Below are positions 48,938-60,413 of a DNA stretch of 64,000 nucleotides, one piece after another. The notes under the pieces are model-generated. The model saw only the letters and a list, made by a program, of their open reading frames with translations, ran no database searches and was not told the DNA's origin. Source of the DNA: an uncultured archaeon (GTDB lineage Archaea; Thermoproteota; Bathyarchaeia; Bathyarchaeales; Bathycorpusculaceae); the NCBI GenBank assembly GCA_963810275.1, contig CAWENF010000003.1, forward strand, positions 96,001-160,000, written 5' to 3'. Position 1 is the first letter of the stretch, and every line of letters begins with the position of its first letter. A program made the translations under genes and the position numbers.

Positions 48938-49150
48938 GAGACTCAGTCCTAATTCATTTGGGAAGCTGCCGCCTTAAAAATGCTATCATTAATGGATAGG
49001 ATTCGTAGCTGCTTTCCAAAAGGTTAGCAGGTGTTTTCTGCATTTTTAGACGAGTTCGCTTGGATAAAGCAGGCGGTTAACAGGGTTATGCGTAAATATT
49101 ATATGCGTGCTTTTGCTTCTTCGGTTTGCATTAAGGGTCTGTGGCTTAAT

Positions 49151-50656
49151 TTGTCTAAAGACGGCACTCGCACCATTGAAGAGATTAATGATAAGATACG
49201 AAAAGGCGACGCTCAAGTTTTAACTGCTGAGGAAATGAAAAAACTAGTCGAAAGCAGCGGCGTAGAAGTCGCCTTCAAAGAAGTAGATGTAGTTACAACT
49301 GGCACTTTCGGCGCTATGTGTAGCAGTGGTGCACTTATCAACGTGGGGCACTCAGATCCACCCATCAAAATCGACCGCGCATGGCTAAACGACGTCGCCG
49401 TCACACACCCCGGAGCGGCAGTCGACCTTTTTATCGGTGCCACCAACATGACCGATAAGCACAACTATGACTACGGTGGAGGACACGTCATATCTGACCT
49501 TGTGTCAGGCAAAGAAGTTGATTTCCGAGCTACAGGGGTAGGCACAGACTGCTATCCACGAACCAGCGTCCACACAACCATAACCAAAGACGACCTCAAC
49601 CAGTTCCAACTCATCAACTTCCGCAACTGCTACCAAAAATACAACTGTGCAGTAAACGGGAGTGACGAAATCATCTATACGTATATGAGCAAGCTTTTGC
49701 CCCGATTCCGCAACGCTACTTTTAGTGGCGCAGGCGAACTCAATCCCTTAATGAACGACCCAGACTATGAAACCATTGGGCTGGGCACACGCATTTTTCT
49801 TGGAGGCGGACAAGGCTACATCATCGGGGAAGGAACGCAGCACAGCCCCCAAAGCCAAGATGGAACACTAATGGTGAAAGGCGACGCTAAGAAGATGTCC
49901 TCCGAGTTTTTGCAAGGAGCCAGCTTCACTAAGTACGGCACCAGCATGTATGTCGGACTGGGCATCCCAATCCCTATCCTAAACATGGGAATAGCAAGGA
50001 AAACAGCGATTCGAGACAGCGAAATCTTCACCAACATCGTCGACTACAGTGTTCCCAGACGGGACCGACCTAAATACGGGAAAGTCAGCTATCAAGAACT
50101 CAAATCAGGCACCATAAACGTCAACGGAAAAAAAGTCCGCGTTAGCTCACTGAGCAGCATTAAAATGGCGAAACAAGTCTCCAAAACCCTCAAACAATGG
50201 ATTGAAGAAGGTAAATTCACCCTTACAGCACCCATCGAGCGGCTCCCCACCAACACCACATTCAAACCAATGCGACAAACCGAGGAAATCCCGTTCGTCG
50301 TCAGTGTCATGCATGCCGCCGTCACCTGCACCGAAAACGAGGAAATCCGAGCCATCGCAGAACGAATAGTCACCAAATCTGTCAACCACATTGTCGTCAT
50401 AGATGATGTAGGCAAAATCCGAGGCATCGTCACCTCGTGGGACATCACCCGAGCCATGGCGGAAGGCAAAAAAGCACTCGCTGACATTGAATCCAAAAAC
50501 GTGGTGACAGCCAAACCTGATGAGCCATTGGAAATCGCGTCTAAACGAATGGCACAGCACAGCATTTCCGCCCTGCCTGTTATAGATATAGAAAAGAAGG
50601 TTCTCGGAATCATCACATCTGAAGACGTGTCTAGACTATTGGGGAGAGGAAACTAA
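49151..50656 (+). CDS. L-aspartate semialdehyde sulfurtransferase (DUF39 + CBS pair; homocysteine biosynthesis, MA1821/MJ0100 family)
   Basis: RTIEEINDKI, DVVTTGTFGAMCSSG, NDPDYETIGLGTRIFLGG, tandem CBS domains; probable TTG start 49151. Confidence 0.9.
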   Translation: MSKDGTRTIEEINDKIRKGDAQVLTAEEMKKLVESSGVEVAFKEVDVVTTGTFGAMCSSGALINVGHSDPPIKIDRAWLNDVAVTHPGAAVDLFIGATNMTDKHNYDYGGGHVISDLVSGKEVDFRATGVGTDCYPRTSVHTTITKDDLNQFQLINFRNCYQKYNCAVNGSDEIIYTYMSKLLPRFRNATFSGAGELNPLMNDPDYETIGLGTRIFLGGGQGYIIGEGTQHSPQSQDGTLMVKGDAKKMSSEFLQGASFTKYGTSMYVGLGIPIPILNMGIARKTAIRDSEIFTNIVDYSVPRRDRPKYGKVSYQELKSGTINVNGKKVRVSSLSSIKMAKQVSKTLKQWIEEGKFTLTAPIERLPTNTTFKPMRQTEEIPFVVSVMHAAVTCTENEEIRAIAERIVTKSVNHIVVIDDVGKIRGIVTSWDITRAMAEGKKALADIESKNVVTAKPDEPLEIASKRMAQHSISALPVIDIEKKVLGIITSEDVSRLLGRGN

Positions 50657-51087
50657 TGGGACGACTATATCTCCGCATGAATGAAGAGCAGGTTTCTGAG
50701 CCTATAGCCTCGCAAATCATCATCGAGTATAAGGTGCCCATGGCGATTCTTTCAGCGCATATTAACTCAAAGGGCGGCGAAATTCTCGTTGAAGTGCCAG
50801 ATGAAATCGAGGACAAAATCGTGGAGGCTTTTCGCAGCCGAGGGGTCATCGTTACCGTTCCCAAACTCATCGAAGTGGACAGCGAAAAATGCTTTAGCTG
50901 CGGCAGCTGTGTCGCGCTTTGCCCAGTGGAAGCGATCAAAACAACCCGAGACGGCTCCGTCGAATTTGATAAAGAACGCTGTTTGGGAAACACATGTGGG
51001 ATTTGTGTTGATGCCTGCCCAGCGCGGGCCATCAAGTCGCTTAAGCCCAACGGCAATGGGAATGCTAACAGGGACAAAAAAAGTTGA
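50656..51087 (+). CDS. NIL-domain ferredoxin partner of the sulfurtransferase (MA1822-like)
   Basis: EPIASQII..ILSAHI NIL domain; CFSCGSCVALCP and CGICVDACP; coupled to the upstream gene. Confidence 0.88.
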   Translation: MGRLYLRMNEEQVSEPIASQIIIEYKVPMAILSAHINSKGGEILVEVPDEIEDKIVEAFRSRGVIVTVPKLIEVDSEKCFSCGSCVALCPVEAIKTTRDGSVEFDKERCLGNTCGICVDACPARAIKSLKPNGNGNANRDKKS

Positions 51088-51785
51088 ACCCCAAACTATT
51101 AAGAGAAGCGTTCACCCTAAAGGAAAGCCAATGTACCTTTGTTTCTGACAGCCCAGAAGCCCTCGAAGTCGCCAAACAATCCATCCATTGCAGCCGCCTT
51201 GACCTTGAACTCTACGTGCGAATGAACCCAAAATTCGAGCACACCCTCACGCCCGTAGATGTTCCTGAAAAGCCGCTTGTCGCCAAACTCATGGCTGAAG
51301 CAGCTGTTTTGGCTAAGGTAGGTCCTATGGCGGCAGTGGCGGGCGCTATAGCGGACATAGCTGTAGCGGATATGCTCAGAATTGGATGCAAGGTGGCGGT
51401 GGTGGAGAACGGCGGCGAAATCATGGCACAAGCCAACCAGCCTGTGGATGTAGCAGTAGCTGCAGGGGAGGAGCCGCTTTCCAAATGCTTCGGTTTTAGA
51501 TTAGCAGATTTTCCAATCGCTGTCGCCACTAGTTCCGGTAGGTTTAGCCACGCTTTCAGCTTCGGCGACGCAGAAGCAGCCATCGTCTTCGGCAAAAACG
51601 CATCTTTAGCGGATGCTGCGGCGACTGCGGTGGGTAACGAGGTGAAGGGCGAGGACGTGCAGGAGGCGATTCAAGAGGGCATAAAAAGAGCCTTAAGTAT
51701 TGAAGGAGTCGAGGGGGTAATGATCATCTACCGCGGCGAAGTAGGCACCGCAGGCAAAATTCCCAAACTTATCAAACTCAGCTAA
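51084..51785 (+). CDS. UPF0280/ApbE-like protein (COG2122, sulfide assimilation)
   Basis: VGPMAAVAGAIAD, VENGGEI, ATSSG..HAFSFG, ADAAATA. Confidence 0.88.
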   Translation: MNPKLLREAFTLKESQCTFVSDSPEALEVAKQSIHCSRLDLELYVRMNPKFEHTLTPVDVPEKPLVAKLMAEAAVLAKVGPMAAVAGAIADIAVADMLRIGCKVAVVENGGEIMAQANQPVDVAVAAGEEPLSKCFGFRLADFPIAVATSSGRFSHAFSFGDAEAAIVFGKNASLADAAATAVGNEVKGEDVQEAIQEGIKRALSIEGVEGVMIIYRGEVGTAGKIPKLIKLS

Positions 51786-52072
51786 GCTGCCCGCTTTGCT
51801 CTGCGCCGGTTCTGAGACGCGCCAACCCATTTCCCTAATAGCAGCGTATTTTGTGTTGTCTTGCCTCAGTAACTACGAACGTAGGTCTCATTAACGGATT
51901 CCCTAACTCAAACGCCAAACTACAGCGCGGATTAGCATGGAGGAAATCTGAATCCTTCCAATCTGCGGACAGCTACATAGCCCGAATCGACAAACTATTT
52001 AATGAAGGAAAAAACAACATCAATAGAGGCACACAAATACCTTGCCGCTGAGTAGTACCGCAAACTTGACTC

Positions 52073-52088
52073 CGAAACGCTTATATTT
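52073..52088 (+). promoter_or_regulatory. BRE/TATA promoter of the aromatic amino-acid operon
   Basis: CGAAACG-CTTATATTT; predicted start site near 52110, just before the leader ATG. Confidence 0.6.
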
Positions 52089-52120
52089 TTTGTAAGGTGA
52101 CTCATTTGCGGGTCGAAGCA

Positions 52121-52207
52121 ATGATATACACATTAGTAATAAGCAGTAACGCACTGCAATTTGGCAGCTTCGACTATGGCTTTTATTATTTCGGTTATTT
52201 TCCTTAA
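52121..52207 (+). CDS. Putative Phe/Tyr-sensing leader peptide (28 aa)
   Basis: ATG..TAA reads MIYTLVISSNALQFGSFDYGFYYFGYFP; 9 of the last 15 codons are Phe/Tyr; ends 56 nt before the operon's first ATG. Confidence 0.72.
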   Translation: MIYTLVISSNALQFGSFDYGFYYFGYFP

Positions 52208-52245
52208 GCCCAGAACGGTCAAAATTTTTGAGTAAAGTTCTGGGC
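52208..52245 (+). promoter_or_regulatory. Leader hairpin (attenuator/antiterminator candidate)
   Basis: GCCCAGAAC/GTTCTGGGC perfect 9 bp plus inner TCAAA/TTTGA; begins at the base right after the leader stop. Confidence 0.6.
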
Positions 52246-52263
52246 AACAAACGGGTGTAGCAA

Positions 52264-53508
52264 ATGACGAAACAACTCTCTAAACGTAAACTAGTAGTAA
52301 AATTCGGCGGCTCCAGCTTATCTGACCACGAACGCATGCTAAAAGCAGTTATGGCAGTTGTAAAAGAAGCACAGAAGGGCACGAAACTCGCCGTGGTAGT
52401 ATCAGCTATGGGCAAAACAACCGATGTGCTTCTAGCCACGGCTAAGAGCACTTCAAATGGTAAACTCCAAAAACATGAACTCGATGAAATCCTTTCCATG
52501 GGCGAACGCACTAGCATGCGCATCTTCGCCACCGCCTTACGCAACAACGGCGTGGACGCCTGCTACTTCGACCCTATTGATAATAAGTGGCCAATCATCA
52601 GTGACGAGGCTTTCCAAAATGCCAATCCAGACCTTAAAGAATGTAGCAAGAAAATCAAAGAATACATCCAGCCCTTGGTTGAGGCAGGCACTATACCGGT
52701 AATTGCGGGTTTCGTCGGGAAAACTGAGGATGGAAAAATCACCACAATGGGCAGGGGCGGAAGCGACACCACCGCCTTCATTTTAGCAGAAGGCATAGGT
52801 GCAGACCAAGTGGTGCTTGTAACTGACGCAGATGGCATCATGAGCAGTGACCCTAAAATCATAAAGAACCCGAGGCTTCTGCAAACAATCGACGTTAACA
52901 CGCTGGTGGGTTTGGCTGATTCAGGAGCGAAATTTATTCACGCCAAGGCGCTTAAATACAAACCTAAAGCTATCGATGTGAAAGTCATCAGCAACAAGCA
53001 CGGCGACTTAAGCAAAGACGGCACAATCATCACCGGCGCGTTGGCGTGGGAATTGAATGCGGAAATAGCTAATCCCTCTTCCGTAGCGGAGATAACCGTT
53101 ATTGGTAAAGGCTTGTCAGCAAATCCTCAAGTCATAACCGAAATTGTTCAGAAAGTAAAGCAGAACAGCAGATTACTGGGCATGTCAATGAACACTAACT
53201 CCATAATACTCTACGTGCCCCAAACCGACATCATCGACGAACTCTTCGACCAGATTCACCAAATCACAATAAACAACAAAGAAACCATCGCCATGGCAGT
53301 CAAAAAAGACTTAGTGCTCATCAAAACCAGCGGTGTTGGCTTAGAGGAAACCCAGGGTCTCATCGGCAAAATCAGCGAGGACCTGCGCGTAAAGGGGATA
53401 AACATCAGCGGCATCTTAACCATCACATCCAGTATTTTGCTATTTGTTGATTGGAATGAGAAAGAGAAAGCGCTAAAGTTAATTAAAAACGCTCTCAGAA
53501 ATCATTAG
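52264..53508 (+). CDS. lysC: Aspartate kinase with ACT domains
   Basis: VVKFGGSS, VVSAMGKTTD, GRGGSDTTA, TDADGIMSSDP. Confidence 0.93.
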   Translation: MTKQLSKRKLVVKFGGSSLSDHERMLKAVMAVVKEAQKGTKLAVVVSAMGKTTDVLLATAKSTSNGKLQKHELDEILSMGERTSMRIFATALRNNGVDACYFDPIDNKWPIISDEAFQNANPDLKECSKKIKEYIQPLVEAGTIPVIAGFVGKTEDGKITTMGRGGSDTTAFILAEGIGADQVVLVTDADGIMSSDPKIIKNPRLLQTIDVNTLVGLADSGAKFIHAKALKYKPKAIDVKVISNKHGDLSKDGTIITGALAWELNAEIANPSSVAEITVIGKGLSANPQVITEIVQKVKQNSRLLGMSMNTNSIILYVPQTDIIDELFDQIHQITINNKETIAMAVKKDLVLIKTSGVGLEETQGLIGKISEDLRVKGINISGILTITSSILLFVDWNEKEKALKLIKNALRNH

Positions 53509-53521
53509 GGTGGATGCACAA

Positions 53522-54313
53522 ATGAACGAGGGAAAAATTCGCAGACTTAAAAAAATCATTCAGAAAGATAACCGCACCGTAATTGTACCCATGGATCACG
53601 GTGTCACCATTGGACCCGTCACTGGCATAGTGAACATGCAAAAAATCACCGACCAACTAGTCAAAGGAAAAGCCGACGCAATCCTTGTGCATAAAGGCAT
53701 TGCACGCCGCATCGACGTTGACGGAGCAGGCTTAATCGTTATGCTTTCAGGTGCATCCAGCCTCGGACCAAACCCCAACGGCAAAGTTCAAGTCTGCAGC
53801 GTTCAAGAAGCAGTTCGGTTGGGCGCGGAGGCAGTTTCTGTTCACATTAACGTAGGCGCCCAAGATGAAGACAAGATGCTCTGCACTTTGGGTAAGGTGG
53901 CAGAGGAATGCGAAGTCTTCGGCATGCCACTTCTGGCTATGATGTACCCGAGGGGACCCCGAATCACCAACGAACACGCTCCCGAAGTCGTGGCTCACGC
54001 AGCCCGCATTGGTGCAGAACTCGGAGCAGATATAATAAAAACCAACTTCACAGGCAACATAGAAACATTCAAGACAGTAGTAGAAAGCTGTCCCGCCCCA
54101 GTAGTCATCGCAGGCGGACCGAAATGCAAAAGCGTCGAAGAAATCTTGCAAACCACACATGACGCAATCCAAGCAGGCGCTGCGGGGCTTAGCATCGGCA
54201 GAAACATTTTCCAATGCGAAACGCCCACTAATATTACAAGGGCGCTTGCCGCCATCGTTCATGAGAAAGCCACCGTGGCGGATGCGCAAAAGTTTTTGGG
54301 TGAAAAACTTTGA
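53522..54313 (+). CDS. aroA': 2-amino-3,7-dideoxy-D-threo-hept-6-ulosonate (ADH) synthase
   Basis: Class I aldolase motifs VPMDHG, MMYPRG, GADIIKT, VIAGG, GRNIFQ; adjacent to DHQ synthase II. Confidence 0.9.
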   Translation: MNEGKIRRLKKIIQKDNRTVIVPMDHGVTIGPVTGIVNMQKITDQLVKGKADAILVHKGIARRIDVDGAGLIVMLSGASSLGPNPNGKVQVCSVQEAVRLGAEAVSVHINVGAQDEDKMLCTLGKVAEECEVFGMPLLAMMYPRGPRITNEHAPEVVAHAARIGAELGADIIKTNFTGNIETFKTVVESCPAPVVIAGGPKCKSVEEILQTTHDAIQAGAAGLSIGRNIFQCETPTNITRALAAIVHEKATVADAQKFLGEKL

Positions 54314-55332
54314 AGGAACTCTGGGTAGAAATATTAAAAGAAGACCAGAAAGGCTCAATGCAAGAGGCAGCTGCACAATTCAGCGACGCTGTTATCGAAG
54401 AGAACTCTGTTGTTTTTGTAGCAGCCGACGAACACGTAGCCCTATCGCCGCTTACCAAAGAGACCCTTAACGAGCAAAACACAACTGAAAAAATCTTCCG
54501 CATAACCATAAGCGATAAAGAATCAGAGAACCTAACAGTTGAAGCTGCACAATTAGGCGCTAACTACATAATTATCGGATGCGCAAACTGGCGCGTCATC
54601 CCACTGGAAAACTTGATTGCCCGAATCAAGGGCAAAAGCAAACTCATCGCTGAAGTTGCCAGCGCTGAAGAAGCAAAAGTCGCAGTTGAAACCCTAGAAT
54701 TGGGAACCGACGGCGTACTCCTCAGAACATCAAGCCCCGACGAGCTGATGAAAACCGTTTCCATCGTCAAACCCGAAGCGCTCAAACTACAGATGGCAAC
54801 AGCCAAAATCGTATCTTCCAAACCCATCGGCACAGGTGCACGCGTCTGCGTTGACACATGCGACCTAATGACTCAAGGCGAAGGCATGCTGTCAGGCAGC
54901 CAAAGCGCCGGGCTCTTCCTAGTCGAAGCTGAAGTAAACGAAAATCCCTATGTCGCATCACGGCCTTTCCGCGTGAACGCAGGTTCATGCTCTATGTACA
55001 CGTTAGGGAACCTGCAGACGACAAGGTACCTGCAAGAGTTCAAAGCAGGAGACGAAGTCATACTCGTTAACCGAGAAGGTAAAACCCGCAAAGCAAACGT
55101 GGGTCGCATAAAAATCGAAATCCGTCCCCTCATCCTAATCGAAGCCCAAGCAGAAGGCAAAATCATCAAGGTTATTCTGCAGAACGCTGAAACCATCCGC
55201 GTCGTTACCCCGTCAGGCTCTAAACCCGTTACTGACCTTAAAGCAGGTGACGAAGTCATCGTGCATTTAGCCGCCAAAGGCGGACGCCACTTCGGAATAT
55301 CTGTGCCTGACGAAACGGTGATAGAGAAGTGA
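54310..55332 (+). CDS. aroB': 3-dehydroquinate synthase II
   Basis: WRVIPLEN, RVCVDTC, RPFRVNAG, ILQNAETI, GRHFG. Confidence 0.95.
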   Translation: MKELWVEILKEDQKGSMQEAAAQFSDAVIEENSVVFVAADEHVALSPLTKETLNEQNTTEKIFRITISDKESENLTVEAAQLGANYIIIGCANWRVIPLENLIARIKGKSKLIAEVASAEEAKVAVETLELGTDGVLLRTSSPDELMKTVSIVKPEALKLQMATAKIVSSKPIGTGARVCVDTCDLMTQGEGMLSGSQSAGLFLVEAEVNENPYVASRPFRVNAGSCSMYTLGNLQTTRYLQEFKAGDEVILVNREGKTRKANVGRIKIEIRPLILIEAQAEGKIIKVILQNAETIRVVTPSGSKPVTDLKAGDEVIVHLAAKGGRHFGISVPDETVIEK

Positions 55333-56012
55333 TTCCCCAAATCTGCGTCTCGATTCTACCTAAAAACACAAACGAAGCATTAGAGTTAATTGTGAAAGCT
55401 GAAGCGGAAGGGGCAAACTTTGTTGAGGTACGCATGGACTGCCTAGAAGTAATAGGTGAACTTGCGAATTTACCTAAAAGCACAAGATGCCCTTTAATTG
55501 CTACTAACAAGCTCCCGGATGAAGGTGGCTTCTTTTCAGGTTCCGAAGCAGACCGTAAACAAATCTTACTTAACGCTGTTAAAAGCGGCTTCCAATATGT
55601 GGATGTAGACTTTTGCAGTCCTAACCCAGCGGAAGCAGTTGCATTGTTTAAATCTTCGGGCGCAAAGGTGGTGGTATCGTACCATAAACCGGACGGCACT
55701 CTGCCACATTACGCATTGGAGAAGGTACTAAAAAACCAGCTTGACTCCGGAGCAGATGTCTGCAAAATCATCACAACCGCCAAAAAAACCGAAGACAACC
55801 TGGTAGTTCTACGCTTCATCTCGGAAAACGCAGCAAAAACAAAACTAGTTTGCTTCTGTATGGGTGAAGCAGGCAAAACCTCAAGGCTGCTCTCACCAGT
55901 TTTCGGTGCATTCTTCACTTTCGCCGCGTTGTACACAGCCGCACAAACTGCACCGGGACAGATGAATATAAAAGAAATGTCCACTGCATACAGAATATTA
56001 GGGATAATTTGA
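55329..56012 (+). CDS. aroD: Type I 3-dehydroquinate dehydratase
   Basis: VEVRMD, EGG, VSYH, ADVCKI, FCMGEAGKTSR, APGQ. Confidence 0.93.
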   Translation: MIPQICVSILPKNTNEALELIVKAEAEGANFVEVRMDCLEVIGELANLPKSTRCPLIATNKLPDEGGFFSGSEADRKQILLNAVKSGFQYVDVDFCSPNPAEAVALFKSSGAKVVVSYHKPDGTLPHYALEKVLKNQLDSGADVCKIITTAKKTEDNLVVLRFISENAAKTKLVCFCMGEAGKTSRLLSPVFGAFFTFAALYTAAQTAPGQMNIKEMSTAYRILGII

Positions 56013-56869
56013 TGACGATTTCGGGCAAGACACGGGTATGTGGAGTTATAGGAGATCCCATTGAGCACTCGCTTAGCCCCATCATGCATAACGCAGCGTT
56101 TGAAGCGATGGGACTAAACTACGTGTTTTTAGCGTTTAGGGTGAAGCCTTCCCGCGTAGCCGAAGCAGTAGACGGCATGCGAGCACTCAACATCCGTGGC
56201 TTAAACGTGACTATGCCTCATAAAAAGTTGGTTATGAAGAGCCTTGACCGCATCGACCTCGCCGCCCAGATAATTCAATCCGTAAACACAATCTTAAACC
56301 AGGGAAAACTGCTGTTTGGCTTCAACACTGACGGCGTCGGCGCAGTTAAAGCACTCAAAGAAAACGGTGTTGGATTAAAGGGACATAAAGTGCTGCTTTT
56401 AGGTGCAGGCGGCGCTGCCAGAGCAATCGCTTATTTAGTAGCCAAAGAAGCAGACGAACTCGCTGTGCTTAACCGAACAGCCAAACCCGCTCAGGAACTA
56501 TCTAAGCTTCTGGAGAAGTCTGTGAACAAAAAAATCGCCTACGGCACCCTCTCCCAAGCCGACATAGAGCACAACCTACAGGACAGCGACATCTTAATCA
56601 ACGCCACCTCTGTGGGAATGAAGCCGAAACCAACCGAAAGTCCCGTGCCCGCCGATTTGCTGCGCAGAAACCTCGCGGTTATGGATATAGTCTACAACCC
56701 GCTGGAAACCCAACTCTTAAAAGACGCAAAAGAAGCAGGCGCACACGTAGTGAACGGGGTGGAGATGCTGATTTATCAGGGCGCAGCATCCTTTGAAATC
56801 TGGACTGGCAAATCCGCGCCCGTTGAAGTTATGAGGAAGGCAGTGGTAACTCACTTACAGAAGGTGTAA
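56009..56869 (+). CDS. aroE: Shikimate dehydrogenase
   Basis: HSLSPIMHN, NVTMPHK, NTDG, GAGGAA, DIVYNP. Confidence 0.97.
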   Translation: MMTISGKTRVCGVIGDPIEHSLSPIMHNAAFEAMGLNYVFLAFRVKPSRVAEAVDGMRALNIRGLNVTMPHKKLVMKSLDRIDLAAQIIQSVNTILNQGKLLFGFNTDGVGAVKALKENGVGLKGHKVLLLGAGGAARAIAYLVAKEADELAVLNRTAKPAQELSKLLEKSVNKKIAYGTLSQADIEHNLQDSDILINATSVGMKPKPTESPVPADLLRRNLAVMDIVYNPLETQLLKDAKEAGAHVVNGVEMLIYQGAASFEIWTGKSAPVEVMRKAVVTHLQKV

Positions 56870-56873
56870 CAGG

Positions 56874-57743
56874 ATGGCGGGTGAAGCTGTGGCGGTGGCG
56901 CATGGCGCAGCAACAATCGTAAACGCTATAGCCTTGGGTAGGGGTGCAGCGTTCGGAGTTGACTTGTATACAAAAGCCGAAGTCAAACTAACAGGGGAAT
57001 CAGGCGTTTTTGAAGTGGAAATCACTTCCGACCCCAACGAGAGCACTTTGCTAGTTGAACGTACTGTTGCCCGAGTTCTGGAACACTTCAAAGCCCAAGA
57101 ACAATACGGTGCCAAAGTCAAAACCACCTCAAACATCCCAGCCGCCCGCGGACTCAAAAGCAGCAGTGTTGCCGCAAACGCAACAGCCCTTGCTACAATC
57201 GCCGCGCTGGAGAAGTCGCTGGACGACATTGAAATCGTCAGAATCGGCGTAGAAGCCGCATTTGACGCCAAATGCACAATCACAGGCGCCTTTGACGACG
57301 CATGCGCATCTTACTTCGGCGGAGCAGTCATAACCGACAACACACGTCGCCAGATTCTCAAGCAGCTCAGGCTTCCAAAAAACCTCTCAGTGCTGTTTTG
57401 GGTACCCGCCCAGAAAGCATACACTATCAACTCTGACGTTGATCGCCTTCAGACAGTTAAGCCACTGGTTGAGTTGGCGTTCGAGAAGGCAATGATGGGC
57501 AGCGTCTGGGATGCCCTAACACTCAACGGACTTGTTTACTCGGCGGCTTCGGGTCAGAACCCCGCCATCGCCATCGATGCACTACAGGCAGGCGCAGTCG
57601 CTGCTGGATTATGCGGTAAAGGACCCGCAGTTACCGCCGTCGTCCACTCCGACACAGCCGACAAAGTCAAAGCTGCACTCCAAAACTACGAAGGCAACGT
57701 TATCGAAGCACAGCTTAACGGCGAAAAAGCCAAGGTGTTCTAA
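56874..57743 (+). CDS. aroK: Archaeal (GHMP-family) shikimate kinase
   Basis: IVNAIALGRGAAFG, GLKSSS, ITGAFDDACAS. Confidence 0.95.
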   Translation: MAGEAVAVAHGAATIVNAIALGRGAAFGVDLYTKAEVKLTGESGVFEVEITSDPNESTLLVERTVARVLEHFKAQEQYGAKVKTTSNIPAARGLKSSSVAANATALATIAALEKSLDDIEIVRIGVEAAFDAKCTITGAFDDACASYFGGAVITDNTRRQILKQLRLPKNLSVLFWVPAQKAYTINSDVDRLQTVKPLVELAFEKAMMGSVWDALTLNGLVYSAASGQNPAIAIDALQAGAVAAGLCGKGPAVTAVVHSDTADKVKAALQNYEGNVIEAQLNGEKAKVF

Positions 57744-57744
57744 A

Positions 57745-59040
57745 ATGACATCAGTAACCGTCAAAAAAACGGATTGCATCTCTGGCGAAGTGCAAGCTCC
57801 TGCCTCAAAGGCTTACACTCAACGCATGGTTATCGCGTCAGCCTTATCCAACGGAACCTCCAAAGTGGAGAAACCACTGTTTTCCAAAGACACCGAAGCC
57901 GCCCTACGCGCAGTAACGGGGTTGGGCGCCAAAGTTGAAGCGGGAGACGGACAATGGACGATAACGGGAGTAGCCCAACTGGAAGCCCCCAGCGAACCCA
58001 TTGATTGCGGCGAATCAGGAGCCACGCTAAGGTTTATAGTACCAGTCGCGGCTTTGGCAGACGGTGTCTCCACGCTGCTTTTCCATGGCTCAATTGCTCG
58101 TCGCCCCATAGAGCCCCTGCTAAACAGCCTCCATGACTTGAATGCAGAGGCATTTGTTGGCAAGCACTGTGAGGTGGATGCGGTGTTTGTGCAGGGCGGA
58201 GGCATTGCAGGTGGAAGAACCGAGATTGCTGGGGATGTTAGTTCACAGTTTATTTCTGGTTTGACGTTTGCGTGTCCCTTGGCAAAGGCGGATTCTGAGA
58301 TTGTGCTTACGTCGCCATTAGAGTCGGCCGATTATGTGAAGATGACTCAGACAGTACTCAGCCAGCACGGCGTCAAAGTTGAAATTGAAGAAAGGCGTCT
58401 GCTAATTTCGGGAAATCAACGCTACAAACCCGCAGACGCAACTGTACCTGGAGATTTCTCTTCAGCAGCTTTTCTCCTTGCAGCAGCTGCAGTCACTAAA
58501 TCCAAAGTAAAAGTGGGCAACCTCGATTACGAGGCAGTGCAGGGCGACAAAGCCATCGTGGAAATCCTAAAAGAAATGGGTGTAAAAGTTATGGTCACAA
58601 GCGACAGCATTGAAGTGGAAGGCACGGGTGAAAAGCTCAGGCACTTCGATATAGACGCAAAAAATGTCCCTGACCTTGTCCCCGTACTTGCAGCCCTTGC
58701 ATGCTACGCAGACGGCACCAGCCACATAACAGGCGCCAAACGGCTTCGCCTCAAAGAATCCGATCGACTCGCCTCAACGCACTCCGAACTCACCAAAATG
58801 GGCGCACAAATCACCATAACCGAAGACGGTTTAACCATCAAAGGCACCAAACTCCACAGCGCAGTCATAGACCCTCATAACGACCACCGCATAGCAATGG
58901 CAGCCGCCGTCGCCGCAATCGGAGCAAAAGGCGAAACCACAATAGAGCACGCAGAGTGTATCAGAAAGTCTTATCCGCAGTTCTTCCATCACTTAAAGCA
59001 ATTAGGAGTTGAAGTGGTTGGCGGGAAACTCGATAGGTAA
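57745..59040 (+). CDS. aroA: EPSP synthase
   Basis: PASKA, CGESGATLRF, SSQFISG, RLKESDR, DHRIAM, KSYP; ATG start at 57745. Confidence 0.97.
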   Translation: MTSVTVKKTDCISGEVQAPASKAYTQRMVIASALSNGTSKVEKPLFSKDTEAALRAVTGLGAKVEAGDGQWTITGVAQLEAPSEPIDCGESGATLRFIVPVAALADGVSTLLFHGSIARRPIEPLLNSLHDLNAEAFVGKHCEVDAVFVQGGGIAGGRTEIAGDVSSQFISGLTFACPLAKADSEIVLTSPLESADYVKMTQTVLSQHGVKVEIEERRLLISGNQRYKPADATVPGDFSSAAFLLAAAAVTKSKVKVGNLDYEAVQGDKAIVEILKEMGVKVMVTSDSIEVEGTGEKLRHFDIDAKNVPDLVPVLAALACYADGTSHITGAKRLRLKESDRLASTHSELTKMGAQITITEDGLTIKGTKLHSAVIDPHNDHRIAMAAAVAAIGAKGETTIEHAECIRKSYPQFFHHLKQLGVEVVGGKLDR

Positions 59041-60121
59041 AGAATTCACTGTTACAACGTTTGGGGAAAGCCATGGAAGAGTTGTCGGTGTAGTGGTTGA
59101 CGGCTGCCCCGCAGGTTTGCCCTTAAAAAAAGAAGATTTCCAAGAAGAGCTGGATAGGCGCATACCGAACCAGCCTAAAATCGTATCTGCCCGCGTGGAA
59201 AAGGACATGGCGCAGATTTTAAGCGGAGTCTTTAACGGCTACACGACGGGCGCACCCATCACATTGATGGTGGAAAATAAGGAGACTCAGTCCAGCGACT
59301 ACGACGCCGTCAAAAACACGCCCCGACCAGCCCACTCTGACTACCCTGCAAGCATCCGCTATGGCGGGTTTAATGACCATCGAGGCGGCGGTCGCTTCTC
59401 AGGCCGCGTTACAGTCACATTAATCATGGCGGGGGTTGTCGCCAAGAAGCTGCTAGCAAGATACAACATGGACGTTCTTGCATACACTCAAGCTATCGGA
59501 CCCGTTAAAAGCCACAAAGAGTTCCTCGCATCAGAAATTCGCAAGAACCGCAACGCGGCAGCCACCCGTTGCCCCGACTTGGAGTGTGCAGAGAAGATGG
59601 AGGAAGCCATCGTTGCCGCAAAAGAAGCAGGCGACAGCCTCGGCGGAGTCGTAGAATGCGTTGCACTTAACATTCCTGCTGGTGTTGGTGAACCGCTGTT
59701 TGACGCTTTGGATGCGGATTTGGCGAAGGCACTGTTTTGTGTGTCTGCGGTGAAGGGCGTAGAGTTTGGCGCCGGCTTCAAAGCTGCCGAAATGTGTGGC
59801 TCGGAAAACAACGACGCTTTCCTTATGAAAGGTGGCAAGGTAGTGACCGCAACCGAGAACGCGGGCGGCATCTTAGGCGGTTTGTCAAGCGGCATGCCCA
59901 TAGTCATCCGCGTCGCCATAAAACCCACACCCTCCATTGCGAAAGAGCAGAAAACCGTGGATTTAACCTCTATGCAAGATACCTGCATAACCGTCAAAGG
60001 CCGCCATGACCCATGCATTGTACCAAAAGCGGTGCCAGCTATAGAAGCCGCAGTAGCAGTAACCTTAGTTGACCACTTAATTCGAGTGGGAGAAATCCCC
60101 AAAACCCTAAAGGTGTACTAA
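59018..60121 (+). CDS. aroC: Chorismate synthase
   Basis: TFGESHG, RPAHSD, RGGGRFSGR, KPTPSI, GRHDPCI. Confidence 0.98.
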   Translation: MAGNSIGKEFTVTTFGESHGRVVGVVVDGCPAGLPLKKEDFQEELDRRIPNQPKIVSARVEKDMAQILSGVFNGYTTGAPITLMVENKETQSSDYDAVKNTPRPAHSDYPASIRYGGFNDHRGGGRFSGRVTVTLIMAGVVAKKLLARYNMDVLAYTQAIGPVKSHKEFLASEIRKNRNAAATRCPDLECAEKMEEAIVAAKEAGDSLGGVVECVALNIPAGVGEPLFDALDADLAKALFCVSAVKGVEFGAGFKAAEMCGSENNDAFLMKGGKVVTATENAGGILGGLSSGMPIVIRVAIKPTPSIAKEQKTVDLTSMQDTCITVKGRHDPCIVPKAVPAIEAAVAVTLVDHLIRVGEIPKTLKVY

Positions 60122-60122
60122 A

Positions 60123-60383
60123 ATGAGCGAGTTAGATTCGTTACGTGAAAAAATCGACGCAGTCGACGACCAAATCCTCCACGACTTCTTGCAACGTGTG
60201 AAAATTGCTCGCGCCATCGGCGAACTCAAGAGAAAAGAAGGCAGACCGGTGCATGACATCCACCGTGAAACCGAAGTTTTCAAGCGCGCCAGAGAGCGGG
60301 CGGAGCTTTTGAAGCTTGACCCTGAAAGAATTGAGCGTATCTACCACGAAATAGTTAATATGTGCAGCACCGTTCAACAGTAA
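60123..60383 (+). CDS. Monofunctional chorismate mutase (AroQ type)
   Basis: LDSLREKIDAVD..R..IGELK..RE. Confidence 0.92.
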   Translation: MSELDSLREKIDAVDDQILHDFLQRVKIARAIGELKRKEGRPVHDIHRETEVFKRARERAELLKLDPERIERIYHEIVNMCSTVQQ

Positions 60384-60413
60384 CGTTATCTCTCAACGGG
60401 GAGATGTTCCCAG

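Follow-up and report, generated by a model that had tools for sequence, protein, structure and literature searches.

Attenuation by leader peptides, a textbook mechanism of bacteria, requires that transcription and translation be coupled. Such coupling, as well as polarity, has been documented in archaea. Here, we describe a candidate archaeal counterpart from an uncultured member of the Bathyarchaeia, located in a window (the whole stretch of DNA analyzed, 64,000 nucleotides [nt] long) of contig CAWENF010000003.1 in assembly GCA_963810275.1, where a short open reading frame (ORF) rich in Phe and Tyr codons and two RNA helices, A and B, precede an operon for aromatic amino acid biosynthesis (the aro operon) on the + strand. 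The pheL-pheA and trp-type attenuators of Escherichia coli resemble this leader in that they place an ORF of cognate codons before the operon and let the position of the ribosome decide how the RNA folds (PMC3082878). In addition, the early-leader helix A is analogous to their 1:2 pause structure, and a Pro codon often stands before the stop (PMC3082878). In contrast to these attenuators, the archaeal leader has neither a 2:3 antiterminator nor a terminator made of a hairpin and a U run; instead, it carries an oligo-U tract in a loop and a stop codon that abuts the hairpin, and its host polymerase terminates at oligo-U or by means of the factor FttA. Moreover, the archaeal hairpin would have to act positively, which is the opposite of the role of the 3:4 terminator. 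Since mutually exclusive helices and a U-run terminator are both missing, we have not filed the element in the classical attenuator class.

Other described systems share different parts of this arrangement. The mycobacterial polycysteine leaderless short ORFs likewise place a sensory ORF with tandem cognate codons, but no Shine-Dalgarno sequence, at or near the mRNA 5' end, and they also lack a classical terminator (bioRxiv 10.1101/834739). In those leaders, the ribosome-binding site is sequestered in a duplex that the stalled ribosome blocks (bioRxiv 10.1101/834739). No pairing that would involve the start of the first structural gene was found to be conserved in the archaeal leader, whose hairpin lies between the leader stop and the Shine-Dalgarno sequence. 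In tnaC/Rho-dependent regulation, a ribosome at or near the leader stop controls the access of a termination factor, and a Pro residue precedes the stop (PMC3082878, PMC8429421). In tna, however, stalling of the ribosome shuts the factor out and turns on a catabolic operon (PMC3082878, PMC8429421), whereas an archaeal ribosome at the stop would expose the factor site and switch a biosynthetic operon off, with FttA/aCPSF1 rather than Rho as the factor. Archaeal 3' ends carry U-rich tracts, with no required upstream hairpin, that are used by aCPSF1/FttA (PMC7515710, PMC13681488). The leader resembles these oligo-U/aCPSF1 signals in its U-rich tract, as does the genome of the window in its enrichment of oligo-T after genes, but the tract of the leader lies in a 5' leader, inside a conserved helix, and is coupled to a leader ORF. 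A literature search turned up no report of a regulated leader use of archaeal oligo-U/aCPSF1 signals; a full-text search, with subscription journals mostly outside its coverage and a precedent therefore possible, found no archaeal amino acid leader peptide or attenuator with regulatory helices. Overall, the element resembles the attenuators of bacteria but seems made for the machinery of archaea, and we found no archaeal description of such control.

In our view, it is highly probable that this conserved element is genuine and has a regulatory role. About evenly balanced, in our judgment, is the more specific proposal that it is the cis-regulatory 5' leader of the aro operon, in which a ribosome on the Phe/Tyr ORF sets the folding of helix B and the off state is brought about by FttA/aCPSF1 termination. 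The leader ORF (52121..52207, + strand; 28 codons, MIYTLVISSNALQFGSFDYGFYYFGYFP, with a TAA stop at 52205-52207) was recognized from the ORF list and by comparison within the genus, and eight of its last 13 residues are Phe or Tyr. Leaders for this comparison were obtained through orthologs of the kinase gene that opens the operon, from 24 congeners and from named public assemblies, and the removal of duplicates left 72 distinct genus leaders (alignment A3). All 72 have an ORF ending in ..SF[DEG]Y.FYY.., with 6-10 Phe, Tyr, or Trp among the last 13 residues, and 71 of them share a conserved in-frame ATG, L090 starting at another ATG; the N-terminal half varies freely in sequence, and its length shifts by whole codons. 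Aromatic leader ORFs were also found in seven further genera and in family f5. Tandem codons for the end product of a pathway, placed upstream of the corresponding operon as they are here, are a feature of the trp/pheL class, and the leader ORF is presumably translated.

The block of Phe/Tyr codons (codons 19-27, 52175..52201, + strand), delimited by codon usage, is U-rich: downstream of helix A, TTT accounts for 92% of Phe codons and TAT for 75% of Tyr codons, as compared with 49% and 35% genome-wide. We also observed, at 52175-52201, a strong and position-specific conservation of third codon positions, with the consensus CTTTTATTATTAC..ATTTTCC, for which a U-rich signal, wobble decoding, and pairing are possible causes. 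The last residue is Pro in 45/72 leaders and varies in the other 27 (Thr, Asn, Tyr, Ser, and others). The stop codon is separated from helix B by 0 nt in 63 leaders and overlaps it by 1 nt in six, such that the stop abuts B in 69/72; the statement of an earlier note on this DNA that B starts at the first base after the stop is true of the window.

Helix A consists of a 5' arm, GTCGAAGC, at 52112..52119 (+), which was detected by the repeat finder, in the minimum free energy (MFE) fold, and by conservation, and of a 3' arm, GCTTCGAC, at 52167..52174 (+), which lies within codons 16-18 (Ser-Phe-Asp) of the leader ORF. Helix B consists of GCCCAGAAC (52208..52216, +), beginning at the first base after the stop, and GTTCTGGGC (52237..52245, +), both detected by the repeat finder and by conservation, and a T5 tract was read from the sequence in its loop (52225..52229, +). 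The arms of each helix pair perfectly in the window, and every coordinate that the earlier note had assigned was confirmed, both by reading of the sequence and with the repeat finder. A, B, and a small hairpin all appear in the MFE fold computed for 52095-52275 (-48.9 kcal/mol; z = -3.19 relative to 200 shuffles). Since the same region, taken as 301 bases, holds five perfect inverted repeats of 7-9 nt in the repeat finder output, A and B would be unremarkable from one sequence, and it is comparison that sets them apart.

Both helices are kept in all 72 genus leaders, with 89.9% of the cells paired in A and 99.8% in B, whereas slid controls, in which the pairing partners were shifted by 1-3 columns, gave 20.6-48.4%. 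The 5' arm of helix A is conserved in the genus as GGTTCGAAGC; the 7-bp core of the helix is almost invariant, and its outermost pair (col21/89) covaries, being U-A in 12 leaders, G-C in five (the window included), and unpaired U/C in 55. The Phe codon within the 3' arm is TTC in 71/72 leaders, whereas the Phe codons further down are TTT in 145 cases and TTC in 12, which argues for a nucleotide-level constraint on this arm. In helix B, all 25 one-sided changes lead to G.U or U.G; compensatory cells occur in L006 (A-U to G-C) and L070 (C-G to U-A), and L049 has one cell that is unpaired in the consensus register, with the stem extended there. Substitution events were further placed on a FastTree phylogeny of the kinase proteins, some of them shortened by contig ends. 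The 5' arm of B underwent at least 22 events, all of them A>G or C>U with wobble pairing kept, and the 3' arm underwent three, two of them compensatory, with transitions at 7/9 of its positions being such as would break pairs. This asymmetry between the arms argues for selection on an RNA helix of the + strand, since a DNA palindrome would not give such a pattern.

The structure also extends well beyond the genus. A covariance model (R1), built on the stretch that begins with the Ser-Phe-Asp codons and ends shortly after B, was used to scan 151 genomes of the order. It matched 42 of them, with one match per genome and in 8/63 genera; the matches comprise 12/12 genomes of the genus, 12/13 in five further genera of the family, 16/19 of g16 (the genus that includes Bathyarchaeum tardum), and one g61 genome. 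In the model-fitted alignment A5 (92 distinct sequences, 8 genera), which is itself fitted to the structure of the model and still includes two spurious opposite-strand rows (L019, L100), helix B is 98.9% paired and has 11 doubly changed cells, such as AAC/GUU to GCG/CGU in g18, and 0/500 shuffles reach its covariation score. Compensatory or wobble-preserving change, the generic mark of a structured cis-regulatory RNA, was thus found in families f1 and f7, and the check for conservation and covariation that the earlier note had proposed came out in favor of helices A and B, which are kept across the genus and beyond with RNA-type substitutions. Family f5 and locus L094 also have a Phe/Tyr-rich ORF before the kinase; 0-6 nt downstream of its stop begins a long hairpin, unrelated in sequence. 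An Rfam cmscan of 50000-54000 at E <= 10 gave a single match at chance level, to a vertebrate long noncoding RNA model (12.8 bits; gathering score, 45).

Other pairings in the window did not stand up to the same comparison. The small hairpin GCAGT/ACTGC at 52143-52157, described in the earlier note, is present in the window, but it is not conserved; at 28.4% paired, it does no better than shuffles, and we attribute it to chance. An inverted repeat at 52102-09/52260-67, which would cover the kinase ATG, is 36.9% paired, again no better than shuffles, and lies partly upstream of the predicted transcription start. Three further perfect inverted repeats (I2, I3, and I5) were treated as chance. An alternative pairing of GGCUU (52179-83) with AAGCC (52206-10), which appeared in co-transcriptional folds, needs the Gly codon of the window species, which many leaders lack, and, by eye, is lost where Tyr or Cys stands in place of this Gly.

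Upstream of the leader lies a TATA-type motif with an adjoining B recognition element, CGAAACGCTTATATTT (52072..52088, +), which was recognized by motif conservation and which, from general archaeal promoter geometry, we take to be the promoter. The motif GCTTATAT, or a one-base variant of it, precedes the leader in every genus locus that reaches far enough, L005 ending at a contig end. In the genus leaders, the distance from the TATA motif to the 5' arm of helix A (GGTTCGAAG) is 29-33 nt, with a mode of 31, and that from GGTTCGAAG to the leader ATG is 10-14 nt. The usual archaeal TATA spacing would presumably put the transcription start at the beginning of this arm, and it is from this spacing only that we predict a start at 52110..52112 (+). 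With such a start, the stem of helix A would stand at the 5' terminus, and just 10-14 untranslated nt, lacking a Shine-Dalgarno sequence, would precede the leader ORF. The first structural gene, for its part, has a Shine-Dalgarno-like GGGTGT, read from the sequence at 52253..52258 (+), of which GGGTG is nearly invariant in the 72-sequence alignment and unpaired in the consensus structure.

The aro operon (52264..60121, +) has eight gene products named from Pfam matches and is the archaeal route to aromatic amino acids through the shikimate pathway. It opens with a kinase of the aspartate kinase type (AA_kinase+ACT, 52264-53508, +), followed by a DeoC-type, ADH-synthase-like aldolase; also within 52264..60121 (+) are 3-dehydroquinate (DHQ) synthase II, a type I dehydroquinase (DHQase I), shikimate dehydrogenase, a GHMP-type kinase, EPSP synthase, and chorismate synthase. 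Same-strand genes continue as far as 62999, with Pfam matches to an aminotransferase, prephenate dehydrogenase, and a glutamine amidotransferase (GATase). From pathway knowledge, we take the aspartate kinase to be a plausible source of aspartate semialdehyde for the aromatic route. The link between leader and operon is stable, with the ADH-synthase-like gene adjoining the kinase gene in 72/72 genus loci and DHQ synthase II lying in the fetched flank in 68/72.

Runs of T>=5 in the genome (G+C content, 44.9%) are rarest in the coding sense (1.24/kb), more frequent in antisense (3.46/kb), and most frequent in the 60 nt that follow stops (8.11/kb). Judging from this distribution, oligo-T seems to serve here as a signal for termination, in agreement with what the earlier note had said of oligo-U in archaea. 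The factor FttA/aCPSF1 makes use of U-rich tracts in nascent RNA, and polarity on RNA that is not being translated is attributed to it (PMC7515710, PMC13681488, PMC12548453). The tract in the B loop, located 18-22 nt downstream of the stop, reaches T>=5 in 57/72 and T>=4 in 64/72 genus leaders, which, like the genomic distribution of oligo-T, fits an FttA reading without proving it. Downstream of B there is no U-tail, as the earlier note had maintained: the sequence that follows in the window, AACAAACGGGTG, is without a T run, and the longest T run within 20 nt downstream of B has a length of 1 or 2 in all 72 leaders, which leaves no terminator of the hairpin-plus-U-run type.

In the mechanism that we propose, transcription would start ∼10 nt before the leader ATG, and helix A would tie the mRNA 5' end to codons 16-18, such that the start site would shut after the transcription of these codons unless a ribosome had already loaded. 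Closure of A may in this way restrict leader translation to a ribosome close behind RNA polymerase. When charged tRNA is low, the ribosome would stall on the Phe/Tyr codons, and B would fold once its 3' arm had been made; a ribosome at the stop, on the other hand, would have the 5' arm of B in its channel, and B and the oligo-U loop would be kept single-stranded. Folds constrained by a 28-nt ribosome footprint, another check proposed in the earlier note, reproduced both configurations. With codons 21-23 in the A site, the 3' arm of helix A was covered and A melted, with B intact, and with the stop in the A site, the whole 5' arm of B was covered and B melted, with A re-forming behind the ribosome. 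Folded B would be the on state, since a biosynthetic operon must rise on starvation, and the most likely off event would be premature termination by FttA/aCPSF1 at exposed U-rich RNA. A ribosome lingering at the stop would leave the U tract and the 3' arm of B single-stranded while the polymerase moved on, and the Pro before the stop in 45/72 leaders may prolong this stay, as Pro in this position slows termination (PMC3082878). The bias toward TTT and TAT makes the end of the ORF U-rich and/or slower to decode by wobble, which also fits a termination reading, although it is no proof of it.

The idea of the earlier note that exposure of the U tract causes termination survives in one of two versions. 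Intrinsic termination at T5 would be unaffected by B, since the 3' arm of B (52237-45) is transcribed after the T tract, and this version fails on timing; a factor-dependent version with FttA/aCPSF1 is plausible, and its sign fits. We regard ribosome-dependent folding of B as the likely switch, at a confidence close to the midpoint, and FttA-type termination at exposed U-rich RNA as a possible output, held with distinctly more reserve. Equally tentative is the complete picture of a ribosome-sensed amino acid attenuator that is native to archaea and arose on their own machinery, in which the hairpin at the stop would be an anti-terminator hiding U-rich RNA from FttA/aCPSF1 and a terminating ribosome, in many leaders one at a Pro-stop, would unmask that RNA.

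Several observations weigh against this picture. The tract in the loop of B has fewer than four T in 8/72 genus leaders, in which B is still perfect, the f5 hairpins have no T tract, and L084 and L127 have a T5 run after the hairpin instead of in the loop. A U tract hidden in B cannot, therefore, be the general output; the features that are universal are the aromatic leader, the hairpin abutting the stop, and a Shine-Dalgarno sequence 2-12 nt after the hairpin. Moreover, B would refold after release of the ribosome, such that the model works only if ribosome and polymerase are closely timed. The consensus fold of the genus leaders consists of A and B only, and no conserved mutually exclusive helix was found, constrained and co-transcriptional folds included; the term RNA switch used in the earlier note is thus apt in the sense of ribosome occupancy but not in that of two competing helices. 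The near-invariance of the sequence of B in f1 and f7 exceeds structural need and may point to a factor that reads sequence. A crude whole-genome screen for a second amino acid operon with a cognate leader (an ORF of >= 150 amino acids [aa] preceded by a short ORF of 8-45 aa and, in one pass, also by a TATA-like hexamer), which is blind to GTG/TTG starts and to leaders with few cognate codons, found only the aro leader, and the organism accordingly shows no general use of such logic. Lastly, the metatranscriptome run that was found yielded two 151-nt contigs inside the kinase gene and none on the leader, from which no conclusion was drawn.

We weighed this attenuator against four other readings of the same parts. 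Control of translation, rather than of transcription, appears rather unlikely to us. The U-rich Phe/Tyr codons, brought near by the clamp of helix B, would here pair loosely with the purine-rich Shine-Dalgarno sequence and AUG, a stalled ribosome would free the kinase start, and loss of translation could then cause polarity of the FttA type. The mycobacterial polycysteine short ORFs offer a precedent (bioRxiv 10.1101/834739), and the arrangement is suitable, in that the hairpin ends 2-12 nt before the Shine-Dalgarno sequence in every lineage; in f5 and L094, the 3' arm of the hairpin is pyrimidine-rich and lies 2 nt from GGAGG/GGGGG. The free MFE fold from the predicted start does pair 52181-52203 with 52253-52272, but such pairing between codons and start equals that of composition-matched shuffles (7.67 versus 7.53 paired bases, with 39/72 above control), barely depends on U-ending codons (7.23 with C-ending synonyms), and is absent from the consensus fold. 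Similarly, the predicted accessibility of the kinase start rises from 0.45 in the free RNA to 0.54-0.59 when codons -8 to -4 are occupied by a ribosome (a rise in 49 to 62 of the 72 species), but a ribosome at the stop opens the region about equally (0.54), and in f5 it opens it far more (from 0.26 to 0.60), which would be the wrong sign for translational attenuation. A different proposal, that helix B is a site for a sequence-reading protein or RNA acting in trans, for example an RNA-binding regulator responsive to aromatic amino acids, with the leader ORF modulating access, would account for the almost invariant arms of B over eight genera whose kinases are 57-86% identical, while loop and flanks vary. 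We nevertheless consider it improbable: the changes that do occur in B preserve pairing rather than sequence, f5 and L094 have hairpins of unrelated sequence where B would lie, there is no regulon, as the B motif is single-copy in the window's genome, and no candidate regulator gene was identified among the Pfam-annotated neighbors of the element.

Helix B might instead be a stabilizer or processing barrier, with cleavage near a stalled ribosome leaving a 5'-terminal hairpin that would shield the operon mRNA from 5'-3' exonucleases, and with A doing likewise for the primary end. This is quite improbable in our estimate, since it leaves the abutting of stop and B in 69/72 leaders unexplained, although both helices would indeed sit at or near RNA 5' ends (A by TATA spacing) and all lineages have a stable hairpin that separates the leader from the first gene. 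The abutting stop would be accounted for if the leader were a nascent-peptide sensor of free Phe/Tyr resembling TnaC, in which, with the amino acid plentiful, SF[DE]Y.FYY..P would arrest the ribosome on the stop codon and hold B open. The C-terminal peptide motif is conserved, as this requires, and Pro, which slows termination when it precedes the stop (PMC3082878), is the last residue in 45/72 leaders, but that residue varies in the other 27, and other genera end in N. Furthermore, helix A accounts, at the nucleotide level, for the fact that SFD is conserved (TTC in 71/72), and runs of 6-10 cognate codons are the signature of sensors of tRNA charging, such that we hold a peptide sensor to be most improbable.

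The distant lineages show some further variants of the leader. In the f5 members L026, L132, L027, and L133, and in L094, the leader reads, for example, ..PFFGSFGYFGY.., the hairpin is G+C-rich, and the 5' untranslated region is complementary to the 5' arm of the hairpin or to the Shine-Dalgarno motif. In g16 (L084, L127-L131), CUGGGY, a copy of the core of the B 3' arm, lies about 5-15 nt before the leader ATG and could pair with the B 5' arm (GCCCAG, GCCCGG, or GUCCAG), which would make it a true alternative to B there. The T5 of L084 and L127 follows B directly, which gives these two loci a bacterial-looking hairpin plus U run.

Among the short ORFs seen in the screen of the window's own genome, promising Trp-, Cys-, Thr-, and Ile-rich candidates precede, by eye, unrelated genes. 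On contig C14, outside the window, a short ORF with five consecutive Cys codons, MWRVTDAKYLCCCCCTITWA, lies 21 nt before a gene for a 399-aa protein (156289-157488, -) that, by eye, is unlike a cysteine gene. Around the operon itself, the upstream neighbors (49031-51087, +) are a homocysteine-biosynthesis enzyme (HcyBio with two CBS domains) and a NIL-domain 4Fe-4S ferredoxin, followed at 51084-51785 by a 233-aa protein with no Pfam match. Farther downstream, a gap of 292 nt (60122-60413, +) has chorismate synthase on one side and the aminotransferase and prephenate dehydrogenase genes on the other.

For annotation, the locus is a caution, as the short ORF and its RNA sit inside a 335-nt stretch with no long ORF. 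The seed alignment and the covariance model can serve for finding more such leaders. With well-defined and conserved parts in uncultured but widespread Bathyarchaeia, control of an archaeal operon by the position of the ribosome becomes directly testable. If the proposed mechanism is true, it would provide the first example of FttA-dependent termination under regulation, and archaeal transcription-translation coupling would for the first time be seen in direct regulatory use.

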